Below are positions 4,447 through 26,574 of a DNA stretch of 32,601 bases, one piece after another (position 1 is the first letter of the stretch; each line of letters begins with the position of its first letter). The translations under genes and the position numbers were made by a program. The notes under the pieces were generated by a model. That model searched no databases. It saw only the letters and a list, made by a program, of their open reading frames with translations, and was not told the origin of the DNA. The DNA is taken from the NCBI GenBank assembly GCA_001791115.1, contig MGDZ01000043.1, positions 2,572-35,172 of the forward strand. The letters are read 5' to 3'. This DNA comes from Candidatus Uhrbacteria bacterium RIFCSPHIGHO2_02_FULL_57_19. GTDB lineage: Bacteria > Patescibacteriota > Patescibacteriia > 2-12-FULL-57-11.

Positions 4447-6203
4447 ATGCCCGGCGACGCTGACAAGGTGAAGGAACGGCTCGATCTCGTGGAGCTTATC
4501 GGCGAGTACATTCAGCTCCTGCGCGCCGGTTCCGCGAATTTCAAGACGCGGTGTCCGTTTCACAACGAAAAGACGCCGTCTTTTTACGTTTCAAAAGAAC
4601 GGCAGATGTGGCACTGCTTTGGCTGCGGCGAAGGCGGAGATCATTTCACCTTTGTTCAAAAAATGGAGGGCATGGATTTTCCCGAGGCCCTGAAACTTCT
4701 CGCGGGCAAGGCGGGAATCGAACTCGAGCGCTACGATGCCAAACTCGAATCCGAGAGGACGCGACTGTTGGGTCTTCTTGATCTGGCCGCGAAATTTTAT
4801 GAAAAGGTTCTGCTGGAACATCCGGGGGCGCAAATCGCTCGCGACTACGTAAAAACAAGAGAGATTCCCGAAACCACAGCGCGAGCTTTCCGACTGGGAT
4901 TCGCCCTTGATTCTTGGGATTCGCTTTCAACATTCCTTTCCGGACGCGGCCACACCCAAGATGAAATTCTGCGCGCTGGATTGGCCAGCCGACGCGAAGG
5001 GGCGCGGGGAATCTATGACCGGTTTCGCGGCCGCTTGATGTTTCCCATATCCAATGTCCACGGGCACATTGTCGGCTTTACCGGTCGGGTGCTGGATCCC
5101 AACGCAAAAGAAGCCAAATACGTCAACTCTCCGGAGACCGCGCTCTACAAGAAAGGAGCCATCCTTTATGCCCTGGATCGCGCCAGACAAGCGATCAAGC
5201 GCGCCGGATACGTTATTGTCGTCGAAGGCAACATGGACGCCGTCTCCTGCCACAAAATCGGCATGGAGCAAACCGTGGCTTCTTCCGGAACCGCGCTCAC
5301 TAGAGATCAACTTAATTTATTAAAGCGCTTCACGTCGAATATCCTTATCTCTTTTGACGCCGATATGGCCGGAGAGTCGGCGGCCAAACGGGGGATTGAT
5401 TTGGCGCTGTCCGAGGGATTTTCCGTGAAGATTATTCGTTTGCCATCAGGCGTCGGCAAAGATCCCGATGACTGTATCCGAACCAATCCCGAGGTCTGGA
5501 AGAAGGCGGTGGGGGGCGCGGTTTCCATCATGGAATATCTTTTCGAGATCATTCCTGCCGGAAAGGATTTGTCCACCGCGGAAGGAAAAAAAGATGTTGG
5601 AAACGCGCTTTTGCGGGAGATCATTAAACTTCCTGATCAAATCGAACAGACCCACTGGCTTGGGCGGCTGGCTTCAATGATTCAGGTGCCAGAGTCGGTC
5701 TTGCGTGAGCGACTGCCGAGCGGAAAGGAAAAGCCGGAAAGGCGGGAAGATCCTTCTCGGGCGCCGGCCGTCACGAGCAGAAGCCAGCGGTTGTTTGAAG
5801 GTTTTATTTCTCTTTTGCTTACTTTTCCCGAGCACGCGCCAGCGGCCATCGAGTTAGTTAGACCGGAAATGCTTCCCGATGAGGAAATCAGACGGTTGTA
5901 TACCCACCTGATTATACGCTATACTGGTGTCTCCGGTCGCGCTTATGCCGGCGATTTTGGGCTTGAAATCGAGTTGTCACCGCTGGAGCGGCGTCTGTTG
6001 CTGCAAGGGGAGCGGGATTTTGAAGGGATGGCCCAGGCGGCCGAAAGCGAGATCCGAAAATATGCCAGGGAAGTGCGCCGTGATTTCATTGTTCGGGAAC
6101 TGGCTCGCTTGCAGTCGGACATGGCCGCGGCCGAACGCTCCGGCGACAGGGGACGCGCTGATGATTTGTCCAGAAAATATCACGAATTGATGCAAACGCA
6201 GTG

Positions 6204-6204
<1 letters not shown>
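4447..6204 (+). CDS. dnaG: DNA primase
   Basis: Zinc-ribbon [30 protein letters not shown], a TOPRIM region ([12 protein letters not shown] ... [13 protein letters not shown]) and the conserved position upstream of rpoD. Confidence 0.95.
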
Positions 6205-7433
<1,229 letters not shown>

Positions 7434-7555: not shown

Positions 7556-7925
7556 TCCGGGGTAGCTCAGTGGTAGAGCAGTTGGCTGTGCCATTTTAGA
7601 AGCCACAAGCGCAGCCCTCGATGGAAACATCGGGGTGTCCTCGAGGTGAATTGCTGGAAGCCTACATCCCGAGTTTCAGAGGGACACGGTAATCAGCAGC
7701 CAAGCCTGCTCAGGTTTTTTTCGCGAAAAACTTGCGCAGGAAGGTTCAGAGACTAGGGCTTAGCCCGTACCCCCACACCTTTGGCATAAAAGGTGTGGGG
7801 GGAAGCGCCTCGCACCCAAGGTCTCCGGCAACGGAGAATCCGGGTGAAGATATAGTCCATGCCCCATGGAAACATGGGGGTACCGTGTAACCAATTGGTC
7901 GTGGGTTCGAATCCCACCCCCGGAG
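7556..7925 (+). tRNA. tRNA-Asn(GUU) interrupted by a group I intron in the anticodon loop
   Basis: Joining exon 1 (7556-7589, 34 nt) to exon 2 (7888-7925, 38 nt) gives a 72-nt cloverleaf: TCCGGGG TA GCTC AGTGGTA GAGC A GTTGG CTGTTAA CCAAT TGGTC GTGGG TTCGAAT CCCAC CCCCGGA G. U1-A72 and G73 fit bacterial tRNA-Asn. CCA is not encoded. Confidence 0.8.
7590..7887 (+). ncRNA. group I intron (IC3-like core), no internal ORF
   Basis: Exon 1 ends in U and pairs ggctgU (7584-7589) with Gcagcc (7611-7616), giving the U.G pair of P1. The intron ends in G (7887). Core strings cagaGACUAggg (7751-7755) and aagatatAGUC (7853-7857) can form P7. ccaagc is present. GAAA-capped hairpins lie at 7619-7632 and 7862-7879. 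These strings match my memory of the Azoarcus and Tetrahymena cores. Confidence 0.8.
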
Positions 7926-7926
7926 C

Positions 7927-7957
7927 AAAAAGATCCACCTACGCGTGGATCTTTTTG
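7927..7957 (+). terminator. intrinsic terminator after tRNA-Asn
   Basis: aaaaagatccac-ctacgc-gtggatcttttt. Confidence 0.7.
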
Positions 7958-8094
7958 CGTAGGGGAGCCCCGCAACTGCTTGCGGGGCGTGTGGGATGAG
8001 AAGGCCGGAGCCATGTCCGCCGAGCGATGCTGGCGAGGCGGACGGCGAGGCGCGGCCTGCGACCGAGGAGGCGGAAGCCGACGAGAGTTGTAGG

Positions 8095-8113
8095 CGAATC
8101 CCACCCCCGGAGC
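8095..8113 (+). repeat. direct repeat of tRNA-Asn 3' end (19/19 identical to 7908-7926)
   Basis: cgaatcccacccccggagc, read directly. Confidence 0.9.
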
Positions 8114-8114
8114 T

Positions 8115-8149
8115 GAAAAGCGGACTGCCTTCACGGTGGTCCGCTTTTC
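8115..8149 (+). terminator. hairpin following the repeat copy
   Basis: gaaaagcggac - 13-nt loop - gtccgcttttc. Same layout as the terminator behind the real tRNA. Confidence 0.55.
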
Positions 8150-8425
8150 AGTTTCAGGCAGAGTGGGATTCGAACGGGAAGGGGAGGGAGTCGAAACGGA
8201 GCGAGAACACAATTGTTTGTGCTCGAGCCGTTGAGACCAGCGAGGCGATGTTTTGATAGAACCGCCGAGCTGTCGGGAGTCTCCCGTGGCAGTTCGAGGG
8301 GCCGGAGAGCATACAACCCGCGTTGTGTGCGTGCCCCGAGAACGGGTTGAGCGATGTGCGATAGCACCGCGAGACCCTTCAACACTAAAACCGAGGGGTT
8401 TTAGAAGCGAGCGGAGCGAGCGCGT

Positions 8426-8447
8426 GAGATTCCCACGCCCGGAGCCA
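8426..8447 (+). repeat. diverged tRNA-Asn-like 3' end that carries an encoded CCA
   Basis: gagattcccacgcccggagCCA against tRNA cgaatcccacccccggagCAA. Lies about 110 nt upstream of the 8560 start. Confidence 0.6.
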
Positions 8448-8559
8448 TGAGTGGACGTGTGTGGCGCCCATATGCGTCTGACCAAAGACCCATCAGGAAA
8501 GTGTTGGTTTTTACAGGGGGCTGGTTATCAGTGTCATTTTCAGCTAAAATGTCTTCACT

Positions 8560-11500
8560 ATGATCAAGCTGCAGGAAAATCCAAATAGCATCGATTTCAT
8601 CCGCGATGTTGCGGTGTATTTTATGGATTTCCTTGAAACGGATTTCCATAAAAGAAAACTTCCAAAGCGATCCATCAAGACCCGTAATAGTGACAACCTT
8701 CTTGTGGGCCTAAGCCTACAGAAGTACCCGTCATTTAAACGTATCGTTTTTGGTTTGATTAAGGATGGTTTTAAGAAAGACATGAAGATCACTATCGAGA
8801 AAGGGGTCCACAAGACCAGCCTGCCCAAGAGCCTCTTGGAACTGATCAAATTACAGGTTGGAAAAATCAACTCCGCGGAGTTGAGCGCCACGCTGGAAAA
8901 AATATCCAAAGAAGTTGAAAAACTCGGAACGCTCCATGCTGAGGAATACGATGTTGCGCTGACCAAGTCGATCGAGGTGGCAACAACACTCGTTCGAGGT
9001 GGTCTGGTACAACCGTTCGTAAATCAGATTGAGAAGCCACTACTAAACTTGGAACTAGGAAATGAAGAAAACTTGTTTTCGGTCGAAGAAGAATTATCGG
9101 CGGTCTTGATTCGACAGCTAGAGAACAAGATTTCTGAAGTGCTAAACCTTTTCCTAGCAAAGGAAAAGGTTAATATCCTCAAAGAACTCAAGTCTGTATT
9201 TCCGTTATCGGACATTAAAAGTAGTATCCTCACTTTTTTCGAAAATCTTAAAGTTGCAGACCTTTTCTCTGAGATTTTTGAAATGGACAGGAATAAAGAC
9301 ATTTTAGACAAACAAGAGTTTTATCTGTATTTCGGAGAGATTTCTTACGCTGGAAACAAATATCCAATTTTCTACCTGCCGTTTTCGGTGATGCGGCACG
9401 AAGAGGTGTTTGATATTGATTTTGATTCCCAAATCTACGTAAACAAAAAAGCCATAGAGTTCATCGTTCAGGAATATAATGTACAAAAAGGGACAAAGGG
9501 CAACCTCAAAACTGTTTCGGAAAGAATCATTTACCTCGGAAGTGGAAAAGATGGGATTCAGGATTATTTCCATTCAGTCCTCAGCGAATTAACCAACTTC
9601 TTTGATTTGAGCGGCGAGGTCGATTTTTTGAGCAAGGATCACAAAATCGCGAAAGGTCAGCTGGTGCGCATAACAAACGCGACTTTTGTAAACTTATTCG
9701 ATAAATCCGACGAGGCCCTGGTGAATGACTATGAGGAGATTTTACAGCAGTTAGCCCAAGGCGAAGGACCGCTTGCTGGGATTTTCAGGATATTCATCGA
9801 TGATTTCATCGAGAAAAATCCGATACCATTCAATCCTGAGGTGGAGGACGAGTGGGACAACACACAAACGTCGGATCGCCTCGTGCCATCAAGCCCCATT
9901 CCCTTGAACAGCGAGCAGCTTCAGATTTTGTCCGCGATGAGAAAGGATGAATGTAAGTACATCATCGTTCAAGGTCCGCCAGGGACCGGAAAAAGTCACA
10001 CGATCACAGCCATCGTCTTTGACGCGATCTTGAAGAATCGTTCAGTTTTAGTGCTCTCGGACAAGAAGGAGGCTCTCGATGTCGTTGAGGAAAAAATTAC
10101 TCAGACGATGAACAAAGTACGTTTCGATCAGAATTTCCAAAATCCAATCCTCCGTCTCGGTAAAACAGGTAGTACATACGGCTCCATCCTCGCCAAGAAC
10201 ACAATTGAGAATATCAAGGTTCACTTTAGGGCTACTAAAAAGGACTACGACGCGATCGAACAGAACATTGAGAAGCTGAAAAACTCGCTTAAAGAAGACT
10301 TGGAAGCGGAAATCCTCTCTTACGACGACGTTGATATCAATGAAATTCACGAGCTGTTTGATTTGGAGCCGGGTATCGCGCGATTTGAGGGGGCCGTCGA
10401 TATCGTCGAACTTTTAGGGAGACCCGATGGAGCCACTGAGTTGGCAAGTATTAGAGAGCTAACCTCATCAATTACCAGCACGCTTTCTGCGCCGCGAATC
10501 CAGGAGGTTTTTGGCATCTTCGGACAGGAAACCTATGCCCCAACCGATATCACAAAGCTGCGGAAAGTTTTTGGATCAATATCCAGCGTCCCCCTAATCA
10601 TGGAGAAGGTTCGTAGTGTCTACCCATCGGCAGATCATCGGCTGAGATCGTTTAGGAAATTATCGTCTAGTGATATTACGAAGCTGGATACCTTTCTCGG
10701 GGACTATCAAGCATTAAAATCGTGGTTGTTTGGATATTTCTTTAGCAAGAAAGGCATTGAAGAATTGAACTTGCGATTTAATAAATCCTTTCCTCTCAAC
10801 GGATTTAGCGAGCCACACGAACAGCTTCACGATATCCAGGTTGTTCGCGACATACTCGCATATATCACGCAGCTTGGTGCCGATTTCGACCTCGCCACGA
10901 GAAATAAAATTGATTTTGTCACCATCTGCCATCGTTCGCTTGTCGATAATGAATTTGCAGAGGGTGTTCAGCAAGCGCATTCTATGGGCGAGAACGTTGA
11001 ATTTTTGATCGAAGCACTGAACCCGATTCCTCTCACCGCCGGGAAGGCCGGTATTTCATTACAACGACCTAGCTCCTTTACAAAAAACAAGATATTAGAG
11101 ATTAACGATGATGATTTTGATAAACTACTTCGCTATATCGGACTGAAGCAAAAGCTGGACACTGCTTTCGAAAATATTCCAGAACTGAATTATGCCGCCC
11201 GAAAAAAGAATTTGGAGGATCTTATTACGGCTCAGGCAACATACCTGCTCGATGGACGCCTCATCGATTTCTACGAGCACAGCCGCAATGACGCAGAAGC
11301 ACTCCGAAATATTATTAGAACAAAACAGCGCTTCCCGAAAAACGAGTTTCGAAAATTAAAAGAAGCGTTTCCTTGTATACTCGCGGGTATCAGGGACTAT
11401 GCAGAGTACATTCCATTGGAGCCGGAGGTCTTTGATCTCGTTATTATTGACGAGGCTTCACAGGTCAGCGTCGCACAAGCCTTTCCGGCACTGCTCCGCG

Positions 11501-13119
11501 CCAAGAAGGTCCTCATTTTGGGTGACAAAAAACAGTTTAGCAACATTAAGGCCGCACAGGCACGTTCTGACACTAACCGTGAATACCTGAACAGCCTCAG
11601 CGAATCGTTTAGACGCAACATATCTACGGATACGACGAAAATGGTCCGGCTCGGTAAGTTCAATATCAAAACTTCGATCTTGGAATTCTTCGAGTTCATC
11701 AGCAATTACAATATCCCGCTGCTGAAGCACTTCCGTGGCTACAAAGAAATAATCTCTTATTCGAATAAGTTTTTCTATGAGGGAAGTCTTCAGGTGATGA
11801 AGATTCGTGGGAAATCCGTCGATGAAGTAATTAAGTTCACAATCACCGAACCAGACGACAACAATGTTCCATATCAAAACACGAACATCGGTGAAGTTAA
11901 TTTCATCATCTCGGAGTTACGGCACCTCCGTGACGCAGACAGGGCTGATTCGGTTGGTATTATTACGCCTCACACCAACCAGCAAAAATTGCTGATGGAA
12001 AGGATCGCCAAGCTTCCAGAGAGGGATTACTATTTTGAAAAGTTGAAACTTAAAATAATGACGTTCGACACCTGCCAAGGTGAAGAGCGCGACATCATCT
12101 ACTATTCGATGGTTGCGTCTGCGCAATCGGACCGATTGTGGGGTGTATTCATAAGGAATCTGAATGACGTTGATGTCGAGGAGGATGGGCAGATCAAAGC
12201 TCAGCGTCTCAACGTCGGTTTCAGCCGTGCAAGGGAGACAATGCACTTTGTCCTGAGCAAACCAATTGATGATTTCACGGGCTCGATTGGTGATGCGTTG
12301 CGGCATTATCATTTCATTCTTGGCGAAGCGAAAAAAGAACATGGCATCGAGGAGGTTGATGCCAAGTCAAAGATGGAACCCGTGGTGATGAATTGGTTCT
12401 ATCAAACGAGGTTTTGGAACGAGCATAAAGATTCAGATTCAATCGTGTTCCAACCGCAGTTTGAACTTGGAAAGTATTTACGGCAATTAGATCACACATA
12501 CAGCCACCCTGCGTACAAGGTCGATTTTTTGTTGATCTATCGCGATGAATCCCATCGAGAACACAAGATTATTATTGAATACGACGGCTTCCGTGAACAC
12601 TTTAAAGACATTGATGAGATTAACGAGTTCAATTATCAGCACTATTACTCCGACGGGGACGTGTATCGACAGAAAGTGCTTGAAAGTTACGGGTACAAAT
12701 TCCTTAGAATAAACAAGTTCAACGCAGGCGAGCATCCCGTCGCAACATTGGATAAAAGGCTAGGCGACCTCGTGAAGGTTTATCCTAGTGGGAATCCGCT
12801 GCTCATGAATATTCATGAGACCGTCTCGAGTCTCCAAAATGGGGAAATGAAGGAATGTCCGAAGTGCAAAGAAGTCAGGCACTTGGCTGAGTTTAAGGAT
12901 TCAGCTCTGCTCACGGGTTATGGTAGATTTTGCAGCTTCTGTAAGGGCATCAAGTTCCAAGCTGCGCGCGACGGCCAGAAGACGCCACCGATATTGAGTG
13001 ATCAAGCTTGTCCAAGCTGTGGAGCAAAGATGGTGCTTCGGAGTGGAAGGCGTGAAAAATTCTATGGTTGCTCTAAGTTTCCGTATTGCAAGGGAACAAG
13101 AGATCACAAGGGTGTCTGA
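8560..13119 (+). CDS. 1519-aa fusion: DUF4011-like N-terminus, SF1 (Upf1/DNA2-like, AAA_11/AAA_12) helicase, DUF559/REase_MTES_1575-like PD-(D/E)xK nuclease, two C-terminal zinc ribbons
   Basis: EFYLYFGEISYAGNKYPIFYLPFSV (about aa 253). Walker A GPPGTGKS (nt 9973-9996). Walker B VIIDEASQV (DEAS nt 11449-11460). ILGDKKQF, LLKHFRGYKEIISYSNKFFYEGSL, VGIITPHTNQ, TFDTCQGEERDIIYYS, RLNVGFSRAR. Nuclease VDFLLIY...IIIEYDGFREH...YRQKVLESYGYKFLRINKF (nt about 12480-12730). CPKC...CSFC and the topoisomerase-type finger CPSCGAKMVLRSGRREKFYGCSKFPYCKG. Confidence 0.85.
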   Translation: MIKLQENPNSIDFIRDVAVYFMDFLETDFHKRKLPKRSIKTRNSDNLLVGLSLQKYPSFKRIVFGLIKDGFKKDMKITIEKGVHKTSLPKSLLELIKLQVGKINSAELSATLEKISKEVEKLGTLHAEEYDVALTKSIEVATTLVRGGLVQPFVNQIEKPLLNLELGNEENLFSVEEELSAVLIRQLENKISEVLNLFLAKEKVNILKELKSVFPLSDIKSSILTFFENLKVADLFSEIFEMDRNKDILDKQEFYLYFGEISYAGNKYPIFYLPFSVMRHEEVFDIDFDSQIYVNKKAIEFIVQEYNVQKGTKGNLKTVSERIIYLGSGKDGIQDYFHSVLSELTNFFDLSGEVDFLSKDHKIAKGQLVRITNATFVNLFDKSDEALVNDYEEILQQLAQGEGPLAGIFRIFIDDFIEKNPIPFNPEVEDEWDNTQTSDRLVPSSPIPLNSEQLQILSAMRKDECKYIIVQGPPGTGKSHTITAIVFDAILKNRSVLVLSDKKEALDVVEEKITQTMNKVRFDQNFQNPILRLGKTGSTYGSILAKNTIENIKVHFRATKKDYDAIEQNIEKLKNSLKEDLEAEILSYDDVDINEIHELFDLEPGIARFEGAVDIVELLGRPDGATELASIRELTSSITSTLSAPRIQEVFGIFGQETYAPTDITKLRKVFGSISSVPLIMEKVRSVYPSADHRLRSFRKLSSSDITKLDTFLGDYQALKSWLFGYFFSKKGIEELNLRFNKSFPLNGFSEPHEQLHDIQVVRDILAYITQLGADFDLATRNKIDFVTICHRSLVDNEFAEGVQQAHSMGENVEFLIEALNPIPLTAGKAGISLQRPSSFTKNKILEINDDDFDKLLRYIGLKQKLDTAFENIPELNYAARKKNLEDLITAQATYLLDGRLIDFYEHSRNDAEALRNIIRTKQRFPKNEFRKLKEAFPCILAGIRDYAEYIPLEPEVFDLVIIDEASQVSVAQAFPALLRAKKVLILGDKKQFSNIKAAQARSDTNREYLNSLSESFRRNISTDTTKMVRLGKFNIKTSILEFFEFISNYNIPLLKHFRGYKEIISYSNKFFYEGSLQVMKIRGKSVDEVIKFTITEPDDNNVPYQNTNIGEVNFIISELRHLRDADRADSVGIITPHTNQQKLLMERIAKLPERDYYFEKLKLKIMTFDTCQGEERDIIYYSMVASAQSDRLWGVFIRNLNDVDVEEDGQIKAQRLNVGFSRARETMHFVLSKPIDDFTGSIGDALRHYHFILGEAKKEHGIEEVDAKSKMEPVVMNWFYQTRFWNEHKDSDSIVFQPQFELGKYLRQLDHTYSHPAYKVDFLLIYRDESHREHKIIIEYDGFREHFKDIDEINEFNYQHYYSDGDVYRQKVLESYGYKFLRINKFNAGEHPVATLDKRLGDLVKVYPSGNPLLMNIHETVSSLQNGEMKECPKCKEVRHLAEFKDSALLTGYGRFCSFCKGIKFQAARDGQKTPPILSDQACPSCGAKMVLRSGRREKFYGCSKFPYCKGTRDHKGV

Positions 13120-13232
13120 CCATTGTCAGATTTGTCTCGATCTCGCCTTAAAGAACTTGAGACCCGCATTCGTCGGACTGTCCCGAAGGTGCTCCCGAAA
13201 AGCCCCCTAAGATATACACGAACTGGGGAACC

Positions 13233-13254
13233 AATCCCACCCCCGGAGCAAAAG
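13233..13254 (+). repeat. direct repeat of tRNA-Asn 3' end plus its trailing A-run
   Basis: aatcccacccccggagcaaaag. The first 21 nt are identical to 7910-7930. An imperfect hairpin and a T run follow (13250-13285). Confidence 0.9.
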
Positions 13255-13383
13255 GGGCGACTGCCTGTAGGCGGTCACCTCTTTTACTTTTGTGGTAGTC
13301 GGACTCTAGGGGCGCGAGAGGAACCAAGCAGCGCAGGTTCCGGTGCGTAGCGCCTAGGATCGAGTCGGAGCGAGAGAAGAGCC

Positions 13384-13396
13384 AACCCCAGAGCCA
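13384..13396 (+). repeat. weak tRNA-3'-end-like remnant with CCA (aaccccagagCCA)
   Basis: Part of a roughly 50-nt stretch (13366-13416) that aligns with 8412-8464: cggagcgag ... cc.gagccatga.tgg..gtgtgtg.gcc. Confidence 0.35.
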
Positions 13397-13488
13397 TGAA
13401 TGGGTGTGTGTGTGCCAACTCAGAAGTAAAGGGAGCGTACGGCGCGTGTTGACCGCCTTGTGGATTAAGAGTATTCTTTTCGCCGTAT

Positions 13489-14400
13489 ATGAAGCGTCTT
13501 TCGCCGCGATCAATTGATTTCCTGGCTGTGACCATTACGGGAGGAGCATGGCCGCCGGACGAAGCCACCCCATGGCCATACCGTCCGGGCTGGAAGATCG
13601 AAAAGTTTTTCCGCCAATGCAACTACGATTATTCGCTTAACGGTTCTTCGCGCGTACCGTGGACGGAGAGCGTGCTTCAGGACATCAATACGAAGGAGGG
13701 TGTCGATGGGGTGAAAAAGATCGTCGAGTATCTTCTCGACCCGCGGGACTGGGTGGGGAACGAGGAAAAACATGCCCTCCTTATTTCCGAGCTCAACGAT
13801 TATTTATTTCACGACGGGTACGAAGTTGTATACGAGGCTTCGCTTCGAAGGTACGTGATGAGAGAATTGGGTGGTGAGCCCGTGATGCTTCGCGAGGCGC
13901 ACAAGAGCTACTTTTTCAAACCAGCCGCGCTCGAAAAGGAGTTCGAACGTATCCTCGGTTCAATCGAGACGGACCCGCCCGACGCCGTCACATCGGCTTG
14001 CTCCCTCGTTGAGAGCGTTTGCAAGCATATTCTTGACAGGCTTGGTTTGCCACACCCGTCGCAGAAAACGATTTCACATCTCGTAAAATCCGTGATGGAA
14101 CACCTGCGCATCTTGCCGGAGGGTCAGACCGACGAAGGATTCCGTCGACTTGTCGGCGGACTTCGGACCGTTGTTCACGAGATCGGCAATATGCGAAATG
14201 AGTTTGGCGATGCCCATGGACACACCGACGGCCCACAACATCTCACTCGAACGCATGCCAAGCTTGCCGTCGGGTCGGCGGCGACGATTGCGACCTTTCT
14301 CGTAGAGACGTTCGAGACGCAAATGCCGAGAGAGGAGGCAAGGGGGCCGGGGCCGGATACCATCGTCCAAGGTATCAGGGCCAAGGATATTACTTTTTGA
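13489..14400 (+). CDS. AbiJ-like abortive-infection protein with C-terminal Abi_C/HEPN domain
   Basis: C-terminal IGNMRNEFGDAHGH (R at nt 14194, H at 14215) fits the RN..G.aHG motif of Abi_C and the Rx4-6H signature of HEPN. The N-terminal YRPGWKIEKFFRQCNYDY...SSRVPWTESVLQDIN...IVEYLLDPRDW resembles AbiJ N-terminal domains. Confidence 0.7.
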   Translation: MKRLSPRSIDFLAVTITGGAWPPDEATPWPYRPGWKIEKFFRQCNYDYSLNGSSRVPWTESVLQDINTKEGVDGVKKIVEYLLDPRDWVGNEEKHALLISELNDYLFHDGYEVVYEASLRRYVMRELGGEPVMLREAHKSYFFKPAALEKEFERILGSIETDPPDAVTSACSLVESVCKHILDRLGLPHPSQKTISHLVKSVMEHLRILPEGQTDEGFRRLVGGLRTVVHEIGNMRNEFGDAHGHTDGPQHLTRTHAKLAVGSAATIATFLVETFETQMPREEARGPGPDTIVQGIRAKDITF

Positions 14401-14626: not shown

Positions 14627-16096
14627 ATGGGGAACGACAATGTCGTCCTGCGTTTCAGCGACGTCACCTTCCTCTACGGCGAACACCGGCCCATCCTTGA
14701 TGAGGCCTCCTTTTCGGTGCGAAACGGATCGAAGATCGCGCTGATGGGACAGAACGGCGCGGGCAAGACGACGCTGTTCAAGCTCATCACGGGCGAGCTG
14801 CAACCCCGCCATCGGCGGGGCATCTTTACGACGCCGAAGGAGACGACGATTGGGGTGGCGAAGCAGGTGGTCGCCCCGGAGCACAAGGATCTCACGGTCC
14901 GTGAGTTTTTTGCGACCACGTTTGCGCAGGTTCCGTACAACCTGGACAAGCGCATCGCCACGGTGCAGGACGCGGTGAACCTCAAGACGGACCTGAAAAA
15001 GAAGGTACAGGCGTACTCGGGCGGCGAGCTCGCGCGCCTCCTCCTCGCGTACGCGCTCATCCAGGATCCGGACCTCCTGCTCCTCGATGAACCCACAAAC
15101 AACCTGGACCAGGAGGGGATCGACCACCTCACGGGGTTTTTGATGATGTACGAGAAGACGGTGCTCGTCATCTCGCACGACGCCGAGTTCCTGAACGCCT
15201 TTACGGACGGCGTGCTCTACCTCGACGTCCACACGCAAAAGGTCGAACAGTACCAAGGCAACTATTGGAACGTGGTGGAGGAGATCGCCGAGCGAACTTC
15301 GCGCGAACGCATGCAGAACGCGCGCGCCGAAATGGAGATCCGCAAGAAGAAGGAGCAGGCCGAGGTCTTCGCGCACAAGGGAGGCAAACTGCGGTCGGTG
15401 GCGAAGCGCATGCGCGAGGCTGCCGAAGAGGCAGAAGAAAGCATCGTGGAGGTGCGCCGCGAGGACAGGACCATCCGGGAGTTCACTATCCCCATGCAGG
15501 AATTTCCGTATGACTTCAACGGCAAGATCCTCGACATCACGCAGGTTGGGATCATGAAGGATGGGAAGCACGTCACGAAGGAACTGAACCTCACGCTCCG
15601 CAAGGGGACGCATGCGCTGCTCGCCGGCCCGAACGGAATCGGCAAGTCAACGCTTCTTCAGCGCATCACAAACGACACGGCAGAGGGCATCACGATCGGC
15701 AAAGACGTGCGCGTCGGCTACTACAGCCAGGACTTCGCCACCCTCGACTACGGTCAAACGGCGTACGCCTGTCTCGAGGAAGTCATGGAGAAGAAGGACG
15801 AGCATATTCTGCGCGCGACTGCCGCGGGTTTCCTCTTGGACGGCAAGGCGCTTGGCAACCGGATTTCGCATCTTTCGGAAGGGCAAAAGGGACTGCTCGT
15901 CTTCGCCCACCTCGTGCTTATGAAGCCCGGACTCCTGCTCCTCGACGAGCCGACCAATCACATCAACTTCCGCCACCTGTCGACCATCGCCAAGGCCATC
16001 GACGAATTCGGGGGCGCGGTGCTGATCGTCAGCCACATCCCGGACTTCGTCGCCCAGATCCGGATCGACGCGACGATCGACCTCGGAAAACTTTGA
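14627..16096 (+). CDS. ABC-F family ATPase (two ABC domains, no TM domain)
   Basis: GQNGAGKTT / YSGGELARLLLAYAL / LLLLDEPTNNLD, then GPNGIGKST / LSEGQKGLLVFAHL / LLLLDEPTNHIN, with a charged K/E/R linker between the two domains. Confidence 0.9.
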   Translation: MGNDNVVLRFSDVTFLYGEHRPILDEASFSVRNGSKIALMGQNGAGKTTLFKLITGELQPRHRRGIFTTPKETTIGVAKQVVAPEHKDLTVREFFATTFAQVPYNLDKRIATVQDAVNLKTDLKKKVQAYSGGELARLLLAYALIQDPDLLLLDEPTNNLDQEGIDHLTGFLMMYEKTVLVISHDAEFLNAFTDGVLYLDVHTQKVEQYQGNYWNVVEEIAERTSRERMQNARAEMEIRKKKEQAEVFAHKGGKLRSVAKRMREAAEEAEESIVEVRREDRTIREFTIPMQEFPYDFNGKILDITQVGIMKDGKHVTKELNLTLRKGTHALLAGPNGIGKSTLLQRITNDTAEGITIGKDVRVGYYSQDFATLDYGQTAYACLEEVMEKKDEHILRATAAGFLLDGKALGNRISHLSEGQKGLLVFAHLVLMKPGLLLLDEPTNHINFRHLSTIAKAIDEFGGAVLIVSHIPDFVAQIRIDATIDLGKL

Positions 16097-16548: not shown

Positions 16549-16707
16549 CGTCCGGCGTGAAGCAGACAGCGGTGACTGCGAAGGGATTGGTACTTGCGGT
16601 GCCGTTCGGATCAATACCACGATCGACCTCGGGAAACTTTGAGGCAATCTGGTATACTGGGTGTAGGGACCTCTGCAAAGGTCCATTTCTACTGCGCATC
16701 TCAAATT

Positions 16708-16727
16708 CCTGCCTGCCGGCAGGCAGG
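16708..16727. repeat. 20-nt palindrome cctgcctgccggcaggcagg (copy 2)
   Basis: Identical to 61-80. Intergenic, upstream of the glycosyltransferase gene. Confidence 0.9.
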
Positions 16728-18609: not shown

Positions 18610-19314
18610 ATGAATAGACTTTTAATTACAACTTTTATTTTGGGATCAATTCTTGTTGCTGACTCGGTGAATGCCCAAACGATGGGCGGATTTTCCAATA
18701 CCCAGGTTGATTGGGATGAAGTCGTTGAACACACGATCCGGGAAGAACAAGAAGGCAAAGAACTTTGGGACAAACTGCAGGCAAAGGAAATTGCGTGCGC
18801 CGATCTAAACGATGAGCAGTATGGAGTGCTTGGCGAATACTTTATGGGCCAAATGGCCGGAGATTCGCACGCCGCCATGAACGCCATGATGATCCAAGTG
18901 CACGGCGAAGACGGCGAGGAGCAGATTCACATTGTAATGGGTAAACGTCTTTCCGGTTGCGACACGTCGGCGGCACTTCCAGCGGGAAGTCTCGGCTGGA
19001 TGCCTATGATGAATATGATGTGGGGAGGGTGGTCATCTCCTTTTAATAATAATTCAACAAACAATATGATGAATTTTGGATTCGGGCCTCTTGGCGGCTT
19101 TGGCTGGATATTTATGATTCTCTGGTGGGTCTTGATAATCGCCGGCATTGTCGCGATTATCAAATGGCTCATCAGCCAATCTCGCGGTACTCACCATAAC
19201 GAAAAACCTGCCTTGCCGGCAGGCAGGTCCGCGCTTGAGATTTTGCAGGAACGATACGCTAATAGTGAGATGGATAAAAAAGAGTTTATGGAAAAGAAAA
19301 AGGATTTAAGTTAG
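18610..19314 (+). CDS. secreted/membrane protein with C-terminal SHOCT domain
   Basis: The ATG at 18610 gives a signal-like MNRLLITTFILGSILVADSVNAQ (the track ORF begins at an upstream GTG). Met/Gly/Trp-rich segment, a TM helix WIFMILWWVLIIAGIVAIIKWLI, and a SHOCT-like LEILQERYANSEMDKKEFMEKKKDL. Confidence 0.7.
   Translation: MNRLLITTFILGSILVADSVNAQTMGGFSNTQVDWDEVVEHTIREEQEGKELWDKLQAKEIACADLNDEQYGVLGEYFMGQMAGDSHAAMNAMMIQVHGEDGEEQIHIVMGKRLSGCDTSAALPAGSLGWMPMMNMMWGGWSSPFNNNSTNNMMNFGFGPLGGFGWIFMILWWVLIIAGIVAIIKWLISQSRGTHHNEKPALPAGRSALEILQERYANSEMDKKEFMEKKKDLS
19207..19227. repeat. palindrome family copy 3 (cctgccTtgccggcaggcagg, one extra T) inside a CDS
   Basis: 21 nt, in frame. Encodes PALPAGR in the linker between the TM helix and the SHOCT domain. 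Confidence 0.85.
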
Positions 19315-19771: not shown

Positions 19772-21361
19772 TCACCTTGTCACGCTGATGCTCTCGCCCA
19801 GTTCGGCGCCGCAGGCGATGACCTCAGCTCGTCCGCTAGCTCGGCTTCTTATGGCGTAATACGTCTTAGTATCGTCACCAAACCTTTCGTCAACGGGCAT
19901 CTGCGATAAGTAGTCGTCAACCAAACTGCTTCGCAGATCCAGACAAACGTCGTTGGTGGCGGCGCCCCCGCTATATCCGACAGTAACGCTTTTTAATTCA
20001 GGAGAAAGCGAAACGTTATCTGTTTCAAAAAACGCTTTGTACTGGAAATATTGCGTACTGGAAACATTGATCAAAGCCATAGTCGGAGGATTGACCGAGG
20101 TGCTTGCGAGTTCGGAGTAATAAGTGGAGGTTGCGCCGTTTGGTCCGATAAAAGACTCTCCGACGCAGGCCGAATCGTCACAAGATCGAACCTGAAGATT
20201 TAGCCGCAAGGCGCCGCGCTTGTAAAGATCGGATATTTCCGTGGCCGAAAGGGCGCGGTTGTAAACCGCGACTTCGTCGATTCTGCCGTCCCAAAGTTCC
20301 GCGAATCCGGGGTTACGGCCAATAGTTAAAACAGTGTCGCTGGTGTCGTATCCCGGCCCGGAACCCAGACTGGTTGAAACGCCGTTTTTGTAGAAATAAA
20401 TGTTACTAGCGTCCCAAACGCCACAAACATGCTGCCAAGTGCTGGCATCAACCGAAACACCAGTTGACCAATAAGCGCTGCCGGTCGCCAACCGCCAGGT
20501 AGATACCAGACGATCGATGGACCAGTCATAACCGCCATTATCGGTTGAGATCAGATCATGATCGCCGGCGCTGGTGCTGGCCGGGTAAGCCCAGGCGCAA
20601 ATTGTCAGCAGTTGGCCGGATGATTGATCGACGTTCAATCCTGTAGTGATGGCGTCGTTGACGCCATCAAATGAAGTGGCGGTATTTAATTTCCCGCTGA
20701 CTCCCGCAGTCGGACAGGTAGCGCCGGCGCACGAGCCGTTATTGCCATTGCCGGAAGTGTCGGCAAAACTGGTTGAACTGACAACATCATTTAAATGCAT
20801 CAGTAACTGGTTGCCGGTCAGATTGGCATTGCCCGTCGGATAGCCGGATTCAGATTGGCTGCTGTTAGGCAGTTCTTTATACAACGGCCGTTGCGGCAGC
20901 CAAGAGATAACGTTCCAGTCAATGATTGAACCGGCATCCTTGACGTTAGATGAAAAATCGCCGGAACCTAAAGCTTGACCGGCAGCGGTCAGCTCCAGCC
21001 AGTTGTTGCCGCTGTCCCACTGAGTATTGTTCATCGTGCCGGCCGCGAACTCCGCTGATTCATCGTCTATGAATGTCAATCCGCCGCAGGCGATAGTGCA
21101 GCCGCCTGTAGCCGTTCCCAGCATTCGGAGCGTGGTGTCAATGCCTGATGGCAGAACGCTGTTATCCGTCGCGTATTCCAAAACCGCTTCGAGAATGGAT
21201 CTTACTTCCGACCAGCGCGAGGAGTTTCTGGCCTCAGCCAGCCGCCTTACCGGATCAACGGCGACAAAAATCACCGCCGCCAAGACGGAAATGATAGTCA
21301 TGACTATCAACAGTTCAATCAATGTAAACCCAGCGTCATTATTGAATTTTTTTGGTTTCAT
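19772..21361 (-). CDS. type IV pilin-like protein (prepilin N-terminal methylation motif) with LamG/concanavalin-type domain
   Basis: GFTLIELLIVMTIISVLAAV near the N-terminus. LamG_3-like WQHVCGVWDASNIYFYKNG ... GRIDEVAVYNRALSATEISDLY. Confidence 0.8.
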   Translation of the reverse strand: MKPKKFNNDAGFTLIELLIVMTIISVLAAVIFVAVDPVRRLAEARNSSRWSEVRSILEAVLEYATDNSVLPSGIDTTLRMLGTATGGCTIACGGLTFIDDESAEFAAGTMNNTQWDSGNNWLELTAAGQALGSGDFSSNVKDAGSIIDWNVISWLPQRPLYKELPNSSQSESGYPTGNANLTGNQLLMHLNDVVSSTSFADTSGNGNNGSCAGATCPTAGVSGKLNTATSFDGVNDAITTGLNVDQSSGQLLTICAWAYPASTSAGDHDLISTDNGGYDWSIDRLVSTWRLATGSAYWSTGVSVDASTWQHVCGVWDASNIYFYKNGVSTSLGSGPGYDTSDTVLTIGRNPGFAELWDGRIDEVAVYNRALSATEISDLYKRGALRLNLQVRSCDDSACVGESFIGPNGATSTYYSELASTSVNPPTMALINVSSTQYFQYKAFFETDNVSLSPELKSVTVGYSGGAATNDVCLDLRSSLVDDYLSQMPVDERFGDDTKTYYAIRSRASGRAEVIACGAELGESISVTR

Positions 21362-21368
21362 GCGGCGT

Positions 21369-22973
21369 TTATCTCGTCACGCTGATGATCTCGCCCAGTT
21401 CGGCGCCGCAGGCGGTAACCTGCACCCGTCCGCTAATCCGGCTTCTTATGGCGTAGTATGTTTTGGTATCGTCGCCCCATCTTTCGTCAACGGGCATCTG
21501 TGACAGATACCCATCAACCAAACTGTTTCGCAGATCCAGACAGGCGTCGTTGGTAGTGCTGGTGGCTCCGCCGCCGTATCCGATGGTCGCGCTTAAAAGT
21601 TCCGGTGAAAATGACGAGTTGTCCGTTTCGAAAAACGTCTTGTACTGGAAATATCTCGTGCTGGAAACATTGGTAAGAGCAAAGGAGGGGAGACTTGGTG
21701 ATGAACTGTTCAACTCGGAATAGAAAGTGGAGGTCGTTCCGTCCGGACCGATCAAAGTGTCTCCGGCGCAGAGCGAGTCGTCACAGGCCCGGACATGGAA
21801 CTTGAGACGCACGGCGCCGCGCTTGTAGTGGTCGGAGACCTCGGTGGGCGACAGAACGCGATTAAAGACGGCGTATTCGTCCAGGGTTCCGCCCAGGGCT
21901 TGGGTGGAATCGAAACTTCCTCCAACCGAATCCTGGTCCTGCGCGATTACCAGTGAACCGGCTCCTCCGATCGAGGTGCCGGTGGCCAAGGTTCCGGAAA
22001 AAGACGAAACGCCGTCCTTGTAAACCCTGACGTTTCCGTCTGAACTCTGCCAGGTAACGGCCACATGGTGCCAGACGTTATCGTTAACCGCGACACCGCT
22101 GGCCGTGGACACCGCGCCTCTGTAAATGGTCAGGTTAGAGCTGTTGAAAACCAGCCAGGTGTTATCGGACGAAGTCGTGGCATAGGATGAAATTCCGTCG
22201 CTGCTGTCACTGGTTTTGATCCAAAATTCCGTGGTGATGGAGGTAGTAGGGAAACTGACCGCGGGATTTTTGATGACATAATCAGTGATCGTCCCACCCG
22301 GGAAGCTCCTGCCTCGGTTGAGTTTGGCGGTGACAATTGAGCTGCCGGTTGCCGTGCCGCCATTGCCGGTTCCTGATGAGTCAGCCGCCGCTGTTCCTGC
22401 TGATTCATCCAGATGCCAAAGCACTCTATTGCCGGTCATGTTGGCGTTGCCAGTCGCGTAATCCGTCTCCGACAGCGCGCTTCCGGGCAGATTCTTGTAG
22501 AGCGGCCTCTGTGGTACCCAAGAGATAACATCCCAAGAAACAACGCTGCCTGCGTCTTTTATTGTCGAAGTAAAATCTCCGGACCCCGCGATTTGACCTG
22601 CCGCGGTTAGTTCCAACCAGTTATTGGCACTGTCCCACTGCGTGGCGTTCATTGTGCCGGCGGTAAACTCTGACGACTCGTCGTCTACGAGGGTTACTCC
22701 TCCGCAGGCGACGGTGCAGCCGCTTCCGGCGGTTCCCAGCATCCGAAGCGTGGTATCAATGCCCGTTGGTAAAAAGTCGTTGTCCGTGGCGTATTCCAAA
22801 ACCGCCTCGAGAATGGATCTTGCCTCGGCCCAGCGCGAGGCATTTCTGGCTTCAGCCCGCCGTCGTATCGGATCCACGGCAACCAAAATCACTGCTGCCA
22901 AGATGGAAATAACTCCGATAATGATCAGCAGTTCGATCAGGGTGAACCCGTTCCTTGATTTTTTGATCAGCAT
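21369..22973 (-). CDS. type IV pilin-like protein with LamG domain, tandem paralog
   Basis: GFTLIELLIIIGVISILAAV. WHHVAVTWQSSDGNVRVYKDG ... GTLDEYAVFNRVLSPTEVSDHY. The N- and C-terminal thirds are near-identical to the 19772-21361 product. Confidence 0.8.
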   Translation of the reverse strand: MLIKKSRNGFTLIELLIIIGVISILAAVILVAVDPIRRRAEARNASRWAEARSILEAVLEYATDNDFLPTGIDTTLRMLGTAGSGCTVACGGVTLVDDESSEFTAGTMNATQWDSANNWLELTAAGQIAGSGDFTSTIKDAGSVVSWDVISWVPQRPLYKNLPGSALSETDYATGNANMTGNRVLWHLDESAGTAAADSSGTGNGGTATGSSIVTAKLNRGRSFPGGTITDYVIKNPAVSFPTTSITTEFWIKTSDSSDGISSYATTSSDNTWLVFNSSNLTIYRGAVSTASGVAVNDNVWHHVAVTWQSSDGNVRVYKDGVSSFSGTLATGTSIGGAGSLVIAQDQDSVGGSFDSTQALGGTLDEYAVFNRVLSPTEVSDHYKRGAVRLKFHVRACDDSLCAGDTLIGPDGTTSTFYSELNSSSPSLPSFALTNVSSTRYFQYKTFFETDNSSFSPELLSATIGYGGGATSTTNDACLDLRNSLVDGYLSQMPVDERWGDDTKTYYAIRSRISGRVQVTACGAELGEIISVTR

Positions 22974-26104: not shown

Positions 26105-26574
26105 TGACTCTAACTCTGACGGTGTTATTGTCGGTGACGTCACTCTTTGCCGTTTTCTTGGCTGCAAAATCGCTCTTGAAGATAAAGATCTGCCCGCTCT
26201 GTGCCGGGGTCTTTATCACCTGGACGGCTTTATTAGTTATGAGCTGGCTGGGATATGCCGTCGACCGGACGATTGTCGCCGTGCTCGTCGGGGAGAGCGT
26301 TGTCGGCCTCTATCATCTGGCTGAAAAGAAATTCAAAGAGGAATGGGGAGTGTTTCGCCTGCCGTTTCTGCTGTCACTGACCTTGGCCGCGATTTTTTTG
26401 CTCGATGCGGAACGGCGGCCACTCTCGGCGATTGTTTTTCTCGCCATCCTGTGGCTCTTGCTGGCCTTGGTCCACGCTTGGCGGAATTATCCCGCAGGGC
26501 GCGGCTTGGTCAAAAAATTAATTGCCTGCTGTCGCGACCTGCCTGCCGACAGGCAGGCTGGTAACGGCGGCTAA
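26101..26574 (+). CDS. hypothetical membrane protein with ICPLC motif
   Basis: ATGA overlap with the upstream stop. TM1, then KICPLCAGVFITW, and four predicted helices. The C-terminal tail is encoded by palindrome copy 4. Confidence 0.6.
   Translation: MMTLTLTVLLSVTSLFAVFLAAKSLLKIKICPLCAGVFITWTALLVMSWLGYAVDRTIVAVLVGESVVGLYHLAEKKFKEEWGVFRLPFLLSLTLAAIFLLDAERRPLSAIVFLAILWLLLALVHAWRNYPAGRGLVKKLIACCRDLPADRQAGNGG
26538..26557. repeat. palindrome family copy 4 (cctgcctgccGAcaggcagg, one central change) inside a CDS 3' end
   Basis: Encodes LPADRQA, 5 codons before the stop of 26101-26574. Confidence 0.85.

Follow-up and report, generated by a model that had tools for sequence, protein, structure and literature searches.

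A group I intron in the anticodon loop of tRNA-Asn(GUU) of Candidatus Uhrbacteria and its same-site relatives

The stretch of DNA analysed here (the window, 32,601 nucleotides, nt) comes from Candidatus Uhrbacteria bacterium RIFCSPHIGHO2_02_FULL_57_19 and carries a tRNA-Asn(GUU) gene whose anticodon is split between U35 and U36 by a group I intron. An initial annotation of the sequence had proposed such an intron, and the proposal is borne out by a covariance model, by the pairing of helices P1 to P9, by covariation among relatives and by intron-less sites in the same gene order. We regard it as very probable that the gene is interrupted in this way by an intron that is predicted to self-splice and that belongs to a widespread family inserted at the same site. 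The identity of the interrupted gene, the boundaries and fold of the intron, purifying selection on that fold and the distribution of the family are demonstrated below.

Relatives were sought in about 185,000 species-representative genomes with a pattern that combines the 3' strand of P7 with a UAA preceded by G and with a T-loop spaced as in a tRNA. The scan yielded at least 119 loci besides the window; exons were joined by brute force and each product was checked by ARAGORN. Among the matches listed, to which all counts of family members below refer, a complete intron lies at U35|U36 of tRNA-Asn(GUU) in 104/120 loci (window included). The remaining 16 comprise 11 instances of the same case, cut by the end of a contig or chunk, and five chance matches, which brings the same-site total to at least 115/120, that is, the window and 114 other loci. 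The shortest intron has 184 nt and the longest 618 nt; the median is 236 nt.

The interrupted tRNA-Asn gene and its boundaries

When positions 7590-7887 are removed in silico, ARAGORN recognises the joined exons as a canonical tRNA-Asn(GUU) of 72 nt with the anticodon loop CUGUUAA, exactly as the initial annotation had it. The gene consists of the following parts:

7556-7589, plus strand, 34 nt: 5' exon of tRNA-Asn(GUU), with the acceptor 5' strand, D arm, 5' strand of the anticodon stem and C32 U33 G34 U35 (ARAGORN)
7590-7887, plus strand, 298 nt: group I intron without an open reading frame (ORF), ending at omega-G 7887 (Rfam RF00028, z-score of the minimum free energy (MFE), empty-site alignment to locus L131)
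7888-7925, plus strand, 38 nt: 3' exon of tRNA-Asn(GUU), with U36 A37 A38, the 3' strand of the anticodon stem, variable loop, T arm, acceptor 3' strand and discriminator G73

The CCA end is not encoded. After joining, ARAGORN finds a cloverleaf with a 7-nt anticodon loop and the anticodon GUU in the window and its relatives alike (104 loci). Exon 1, which lay outside the search pattern, ends in CTGT (CUGU in RNA) in 104/104 loci. The U1-A72 pair and the discriminator G73, which we take to be features of the bacterial tRNA-Asn body, occur in the window and in 104/104 relatives.

Further evidence on the boundaries comes from empty sites. In 10 related metagenome loci, tRNA-Asn(GUU) without an intron stands directly after rpoD. 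In L131, whose RpoD is 83% identical to that of the window, two window segments, 7561-7589 and 7888-7926, find their matches side by side, at 1121-1150 and 1151-1189, and the intron-less tRNA of L132 is identical to the joined exons of the window at 66/72 positions. Because no shifted boundary yields CUGUUAA, these empty sites fix the boundaries 7589|7888 uniquely.

Automated tRNA prediction handles the locus poorly. Default ARAGORN calls zero tRNAs anywhere in the window, and its intron-tolerant mode prefers to excise 7588-7885, also 298 nt, which gives a tRNA-Thr(UGU) with the loop CUUGUAA. The initial annotation had recommended this program as a check; the joined exons indeed come out as Asn(GUU), whereas the ambiguity introduced by the intron mode had not been foreseen there. 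Excision as tRNA-Thr formally satisfies the rules of a U before the intron (U7587) and a G at its end (G7885). In P1, however, U7587 stands opposite A, whereas U7589 stands opposite G and forms the wobble of a splice site. The tRNA body carries the presumed Asn features just described, the terminal G that tRNA-Thr would require (-3 position) is A or U in 25/104 relatives, and the syntenic intron-less orthologues read CUGUUAA. The geometry of P1, the tRNA identity elements and the syntenic empty sites thus effectively refute the tRNA-Thr(UGU) alternative.

Fold, covariation and expected splicing

Over its full length (model positions 1-253 of 253), RF00028, the group I model of Rfam, aligns to plus-strand positions 7580-7879 and scores 70.4 bits, where the gathering score is 50 (E 4.1e-16); this check, suggested in the initial annotation, gives the sole Rfam match in the window. 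We drew up the structure partly from the Rfam alignment and partly by hand, and verified each pair in window coordinates. All pairs from P1 to P9 are standard and the helices of the window copy are fully paired. The elements, all on the plus strand, are as follows:

7584-7591 / 7609-7616: P1, 8/8 pairs, of exon G30-U35 and intron G1 C2 with the guide
7609-7616: internal guide sequence (GCGCAGCC), 3' side of P1
7617-7623 / 7628-7634: P2 hairpin with GAAA tetraloop 7624-7627; 7/7 pairs, 7/7 with compensatory changes (17 relatives)
7642-7648 / 7806-7812: P3, 7/7 pairs, of which 3 covary; 99.2% of cells pair
7652-7657 / 7693-7698: P4, fully paired; P4/P5 covary
7660-7662 / 7688-7690: P5, fully paired; covaries as given for P4/P5
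7667-7670 / 7681-7684: P5a, distal, fully paired in the window sequence
7699-7700 / 7744-7745: P6, 2 bp
7705-7709 / 7736-7740: P6a with a distal U/A-rich extension; 5/5 pairs covary
7749, 7751-7755 / 7853-7858: P7, the guanosine-binding helix, with A7750 bulged; 6/6 pairs, invariant in 17/17 relatives
7756-7759 / 7763-7766: P7.1-like extra hairpin, covaries
7770-7782 / 7789-7801: P7.2-like extra hairpin of 13 bp, covaries
7813-7817 / 7842-7846: P8 proximal, covaries
7820-7821 / 7840-7841: P8 middle
7823-7827 / 7832-7836: P8 distal, capped by a GCAA tetraloop
7847-7858: J8/7 (AAGAUA) and P7 3' strand (UAGUCC), the invariant core string GAAGATATAGTCC
7862-7868 / 7873-7879: P9 hairpin with GAAA tetraloop 7869-7872; 7/7 pairs, 6/7 covary

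The P1 of the window has 8 bp, six with the exon and two within the intron, and contains the U.G wobble U7589.G7611 at the 5' splice site; the six exon pairs and the wobble agree with the initial annotation. Every other feature that the initial annotation named was likewise found where it had placed it: the P7 core, in which GACUA 7751-7755 pairs with UAGUC 7853-7857, the GAAA tetraloops of P2 and P9, and the terminal G among them. The latter, omega-G 7887, closes an 8-nt tail after P9; a terminal G was required by the search pattern in relatives, so that it counts as evidence for the window copy only. The loop of P1 (L1) is 17 nt in the window. A guide of the form GCAGC(Y) lies near the intron 5' end in most short relatives. 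The intron has an MFE z-score of -5.9 relative to shuffled sequence. All testable defining features of a group I intron are thus present in the window copy.

Covariation was counted on an alignment (A1) of 17 introns of the window's subfamily, those with P7.1/P7.2-like hairpins, trimmed to the start of the guide sequence; the hand-derived structure was used, with P7 entered as a pseudoknot. Standard pairs occupy 97.0% of the cells versus 34-44% when partners are slid by 1-3 columns, the former value being somewhat inflated by derivation of the structure from the window sequence and by the choice of members by motif. Counts of compensatory changes are much less affected by either. Changes on both sides of a pair occur in 41/59 pairs (shuffled mean 25.5) and in 196 cells (shuffled mean 53), and 0/500 shuffles attain any observed measure of covariation. 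Compensatory changes are found in all helices, extra hairpins included, except the invariant P7 and the 2-bp P6. The window itself shows flipped pairs in P7.1, G-C in place of the U-A or C-G of the others, and it preserves every family-invariant column. To judge from these sequences, the pattern looks like that of a ribozyme under selection rather than of a decayed insert. Covariation between exon and guide, expected in P1 at tRNA positions 30-31, is absent: GCAGC(Y) recurs in most short introns, and its partner on the exon side is the invariant C32-U35.

Between subgroups IC3 and IA, which the single group I model of Rfam does not separate, the traits of the intron are mixed. Of IC3 type are the GAAA loops on P2 and P9 and the lack of P5abc. 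IC3 implies a minimal periphery without P7.1/P7.2, whereas the window intron has two covarying hairpins at 7756-7801, between P7 and the 3' strand of P3. These hairpins are shared by the window's subfamily and absent from the introns labelled Omnitrophota or Planctomycetota.

Splicing itself we infer, and it would follow the standard group I pathway. On folding of the precursor, guide 7609-7616 would pair with the end of exon 1 and bring U7589 into the U.G wobble of P1, while the P3-P8 and P4-P6 domains would build the catalytic core around the guanosine pocket of P7 (G7751-C7857). Free guanosine would then attack the 7589/7590 bond. G7887 would next occupy the same pocket, the 3'-OH of U35 would attack the 7887/7888 bond, and ligation of the exons would produce a tRNA with the anticodon loop CUGUUAA.

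Besides the inflated pairing percentage, several observations weigh against a self-splicing intron in a working tRNA gene. A simple scan of the plus strand upstream of the gene gave no sigma-70 consensus promoter. In four metatranscriptome runs, contigs span parts of the intron in close relatives, and one contig joins 7589 to 7888 exactly; such a joint could equally stem from DNA carry-over or from the tRNA-Asn of another organism that lacks the intron. The intron-bearing gene is not always the sole copy, as the relative L048 has a second, clearly different and intron-less tRNA-Asn(GUU) at 7072-7145 on its minus strand, about 3.5 kb from the interrupted one. Finally, no convincing P10 pairing can be drawn in the window intron; pairing of the two exons in the anticodon stem probably fills the role of P10 and keeps the 3' exon in place, for which there is an Anabaena precedent among tRNA introns (cited in review).

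Could a protein be needed? As for many group I introns, the intron might be genuine and removed in vivo yet depend on a cofactor or chaperone. In many relatives P1 has only four exon pairs and, as said, no P10 can be drawn; the 13-bp P7.2 hairpin and the U/A-rich extension of P6 could promote misfolding, and the MFE fold lacks P3 and P7, whose pseudoknot is beyond the reach of MFE folding. Against such a need stand the compactness of the intron and its GNRA tetraloops on P2, P8 and P9, a kind of peripheral contact that stabilises small tRNA introns such as that of Azoarcus. Few splicing factors would moreover be expected in the small genomes of the candidate phyla radiation (CPR). Dependence on a protein is, on balance, unlikely, yet it is the alternative that we take most seriously.

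A dead tRNA gene with an intron that no longer splices, its function supplied by another tRNA-Asn of the genome, is far less probable. It could appeal to the second tRNA-Asn of L048 and to the metatranscriptome contigs, which gave no splicing evidence for the window copy. A pseudogene, however, fits badly with core helices that are all intact, with the retention of family-invariant columns and with compensatory changes among relatives, which speak for selection on the fold. Six assemblies from different samples have the identical sequence, and the gene keeps the conserved dnaG-rpoD-tRNA-Asn position, where relatives retain tRNA-Asn. When CPR genomes were finished, intron-containing tRNAs were needed for the set of 20 (PMC8172020).

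The same copies bear on the idea that the locus is an assembly artefact, or that a minus-strand ORF of 241 amino acids (aa) at 7760-8485 is a real gene and the RNA features are coincidental. That ORF, which has no Pfam match, is annotated in public gene calls and overlaps the 3' half of the intron, the 3' exon and a repeat at the tRNA 3' end described below. The intron sequence, however, was recovered from unitigs of four runs and, independently, from the six assemblies, homologous introns sit at this tRNA site in 115 genomes or more, covariation at the RNA level is not expected in a protein-coding region, and the frame runs across the tRNA 3' exon and the repeat. No conservation of the 241-aa frame was seen in relatives, because their downstream sequence differs. 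The ORF is almost certainly spurious, and artefact or coincidence has next to no probability.

The locus is found in groundwater and soil metagenomes. Seven metagenome contigs with identical DnaG agree at every position of the intron (100% identity) and so carry no variation. The allele with the intron is covered 13-29x in four DNA runs, with zero differences, and no intron-less allele of at least 95% likeness was found in these runs. In DNA runs X1, X2, X4 and X5, a contig matches the window up to 7590 and resumes at 7884; its depth is 0.7-1.1 times that of the window organism, and it probably represents a co-occurring relative with a different intron.

Same-site introns and the surrounding locus

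The 114 other loci listed carry these labels:

CPR/Patescibacteria: 68 loci, comprising Saccharibacteria (17), Uhrbacteria (6), Peregrinibacteria/Peribacteria (6), Gracilibacteria (2) and other named CPR groups (37)
Omnitrophota: 14 loci
"Planctomycetales": 5 loci
"Gammaproteobacteria", third-party assemblies: 11 loci
"Bdellovibrionales", third-party assemblies: 4 loci
Unclassified: 11 loci
Desulfocicer: 1 locus

The third-party metagenome-assembled genomes (MAGs) labelled "uncultured Gammaproteobacteria" hold L010, L022, L031, L032, L045, L048, L060, L075, L079, L086 and L095, and those labelled "Bdellovibrionales" hold L050, L053, L098 and L107. Several of the "Gammaproteobacteria" contigs show the CPR-like order dnaG-rpoD-tRNA-Asn with RpoD 67-69% identical to that of the window, and over both groups RpoD is 60-69% identical where measurable. 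The CPR-like synteny and the likeness of RpoD make both labels look wrong or doubtful. Among the loci listed, the closest relatives of the intron (L078, L116, L124) and the best matches to the exons (L122, L029) are all Uhrbacteria, from which, together with RpoD, we infer a CPR host close to Uhrbacteria. Complete CPR genomes, for example OZ246407.1 and OY970195.1, also carry the intron.

At least two types of core sequence occupy the same insertion site. The window and others, 25 members in all, have GAAUUGCNGGAA, and a commoner type (type B, 55 members) has GGGAUAWCGGUGAA. RF00028 scores 72-100 bits on nine sampled introns of the window type and 62.8 bits on L059, which has neither core. Five of six sampled type-B loci, together with L060 of the window type, reach 46-50 bits (E about 1e-8 to 1e-9), below the curated threshold; L013, L073, L122 and L050 are among the type-B loci just under the gathering score. 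RF00028 gave no match at E <= 0.01 to the sixth, L017.

An HNH-like ORF is present in 24/104 complete introns, namely in all those of at least 503 nt (L124, L045, L080, L115, L029, L059, L016 and 17 others). The encoded proteins have 78-162 aa, most of them 100-114 aa, and share a CxxC...HH...CANCHRE pattern in all 24 cases; the two that were checked match Pfam PF01844 at E 9e-4 and 6e-3, under the curated cut-off, with a clear motif. The ORF starts 17-45 nt into the intron in most cases and lies within the P1 loop, upstream of the guide. It occurs with both core types, in CPR and in Omnitrophota. From its sequence, the HNH-like protein is a candidate homing endonuclease aimed at the anticodon region of tRNA-Asn. 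The window intron, with its 17-nt L1, has no ORF; an endonuclease gene may have been lost or never gained, and this copy would rely on the ribozyme alone.

Presence and absence were also surveyed independently of the intron scan, in 80 metagenome loci chosen by RpoD similarity. In 10 of these, rpoD is followed by an intron-less tRNA-Asn(GUU) and in one (L130, 240 nt) by an intron-containing gene; most others belong to more distant organisms and have no tRNA at that position. Close relatives thus have the intron only here and there, the pattern that a mobile element with gains and losses would leave, and the HNH ORF together with intron-less orthologous sites indicates spread by homing with occasional loss.

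In the window, tRNA-Asn is preceded by dnaG (4447-6204) and rpoD (6201-7433), an order that is conserved across CPR MAGs. RpoD is 75% identical to that of the Uhrbacteria MAG of L029; the public gene call has 409 aa versus 410 aa of the ORF here, and the start is probably one codon downstream. On the other side of the tRNA gene lie copies of an att-like repeat:

7910-7926, plus strand: copy 1 of a 17-nt repeat (AATCCCACCCCCGGAGC), at the tRNA 3' end
8097-8113, plus strand: copy 2, identical
13233-13249, plus strand: copy 3, identical, closing a low-GC segment

The segment enclosed by the repeats has 42-46% GC versus about 55% in the flanks, so that direct repeats of the tRNA 3' end bracket low-GC DNA as in a genomic island. 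It contains a gene at 8560-13119 for a 1519-aa helicase of superfamily 1 type, whose C-terminus bears a Top1-type zinc ribbon; next comes an Abi_C-domain gene at 13489-14400. An ABC-type ATPase gene homologous to 14627-16096 lies near tRNA-Asn in several relatives' loci, consistent with about 6.7 kb inserted in the window. Past integration at the tRNA 3' end is plausible, and 8114-14400 looks like the remnant of a defence-type island.

The initial annotation had described the tRNA 3' end as an integration hot spot. Three identical copies of that end around low-GC cargo agree with this description; the tested ORFs of at least 100 aa downstream of the tRNA, within the window, contain no integrase domain, so the integrated elements look like remnants. 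It had further tied integration to splicing. The repeat does lie at the end of the 3' exon, but at least 23 nt 3' of the splice junction, so that the two processes need not interact and no functional link is suggested.

Other features of the window stand apart from the tRNA-Asn locus. Positions 1-136 begin with the 3' end of a tRNA-like gene (T arm and acceptor, about 15-42), whose last ~28 nt are repeated at 103-136 with 94% identity; this resembles another att-type duplication, here at a different tRNA. Four intergenic copies exist of a palindromic, GC-rich 20-22-mer (CCTGCCTGCCGGCAGGCAGG) (59-80, 16706-16727, 19214-19232 and 26536-26557), which could be a repetitive extragenic palindromic (REP)-like element or a shared terminator. 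On the minus strand, 19772-22973 holds two tandem paralogous genes of 529 and 534 aa (72-84% DNA identity in blocks), whose products have an N-terminal prepilin-type methylation motif and a Laminin-G/pentraxin-like domain and resemble pseudopilin-like surface proteins.

Comparison with known introns and implications

Classical bacterial tRNA introns belong to subgroup IC3, and their published insertion points are 34/35 for tRNA-Leu and 36/37 for tRNA-Ile(CAU). Our comparison set comprised the introns of cyanobacterial and plastid tRNA-Leu(UAA), Azoarcus tRNA-Ile(CAU), Agrobacterium tRNA-Arg(CCU) and cyanobacterial tRNA-fMet. Like these, the window intron is a compact group I ribozyme (~200-300 nt) that occupies the anticodon loop in a bacterial tRNA gene, lacks P5abc and has GNRA tetraloops on P2 and P9, a U.G at the 5' splice site, a terminal G and exon-exon pairing available in the anticodon stem; the family, too, is sporadically distributed, and some of its members encode a homing endonuclease, as happens with tRNA-fMet. 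Unlike them, it sits in tRNA-Asn(GUU) at 35/36, and its subfamily has two covarying P7.1/P7.2-like hairpins, a trait of subgroup IA and not of IC3. Its core strings GAAUUGCUGGAA, GGUAAUCAGCAGCCAAG and GAAGAUAUAGUCC are closer to the general Rfam consensus than to Azoarcus. The endonuclease of relatives is of HNH type and located in the P1 loop, and the hosts are CPR, Omnitrophota and Planctomycetota-labelled MAGs instead of cyanobacteria or proteobacteria.

Group I introns of transfer-messenger RNA (tmRNA) offer a second comparison (PMC11915505). They too reside in a tRNA-like gene that is frequently used for integration of genomic islands, have a U at -1 paired to G in P1 and an omega-G as last base, and carry a homing endonuclease gene in a minority only. 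They differ in lying in the T-loop and in encoding LAGLIDADG enzymes, whereas the introns described here lie in the anticodon loop, with HNH in relatives. The group I introns of CPR ribosomal RNA (rRNA) occur in the same lineage, in essential structural RNA genes that are hard to annotate, and often have homing endonucleases; in contrast, they interrupt 16S and 23S rRNA, carry LAGLIDADG enzymes and have already been described and studied.

The hosts listed for bacterial tRNA group I introns, in reviews and in the paper on tRNAscan-SE 2.0, are tRNA-Leu(UAA), tRNA-fMet, tRNA-Ile(CAU), as well as tRNA-Arg, in cyanobacteria and alpha- and beta-proteobacteria (PMC3984707, PMC4033280, PMC8450103). 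For tRNA introns of CPR there is a passing remark from 2021, by which intron-containing tRNAs completed the set of 20 (PMC8172020). A search of the full-text literature, outside which most subscription journals lie, turned up no published account of a group I intron in a bacterial tRNA-Asn gene. The initial annotation had called a tRNA-Asn host unusual; this is true of the searched literature and untrue of genome data, where such introns are common (at least 115 of 120 matches listed). We lean, with reserve, towards regarding this family as the first described lineage of bacterial tRNA-Asn(GUU) group I introns, with a new 35/36 position, a spread over CPR/Patescibacteria and Omnitrophota (and some Planctomycetota-labelled MAGs) and HNH carriage in the P1 loop. 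On that view it would bring the host tRNAs of bacterial group I introns to five, with a new insertion position and new lineages of host, and may be among the more widespread bacterial tRNA introns outside cyanobacteria.

The intron of the window, which lacks an ORF, belongs to a large family of which we found no description, and its mechanism would be like that of known bacterial tRNA introns; the main value of the finding lies in the breadth of the family and in a blind spot of annotation rather than in a new mechanism. With default ARAGORN returning a blank, type-B introns falling under the Rfam threshold and the spurious 241-aa call, tRNA-Asn seems to be missing in many CPR and Omnitrophota genomes. 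If our reading is true, default ARAGORN and Rfam thresholds miss most copies, and the introns are a systematic source of "missing tRNA-Asn" in annotations and completeness estimates. The family is also a source of natural ribozymes, dozens of small variants (184-300 nt) in which covariation is rich, and an HNH endonuclease with a defined tRNA-gene target would be useful for studies of homing. In genomes of about 1 Mb, where tRNAs are probably single-copy, the cell would need a ribozyme in order to decode asparagine codons.

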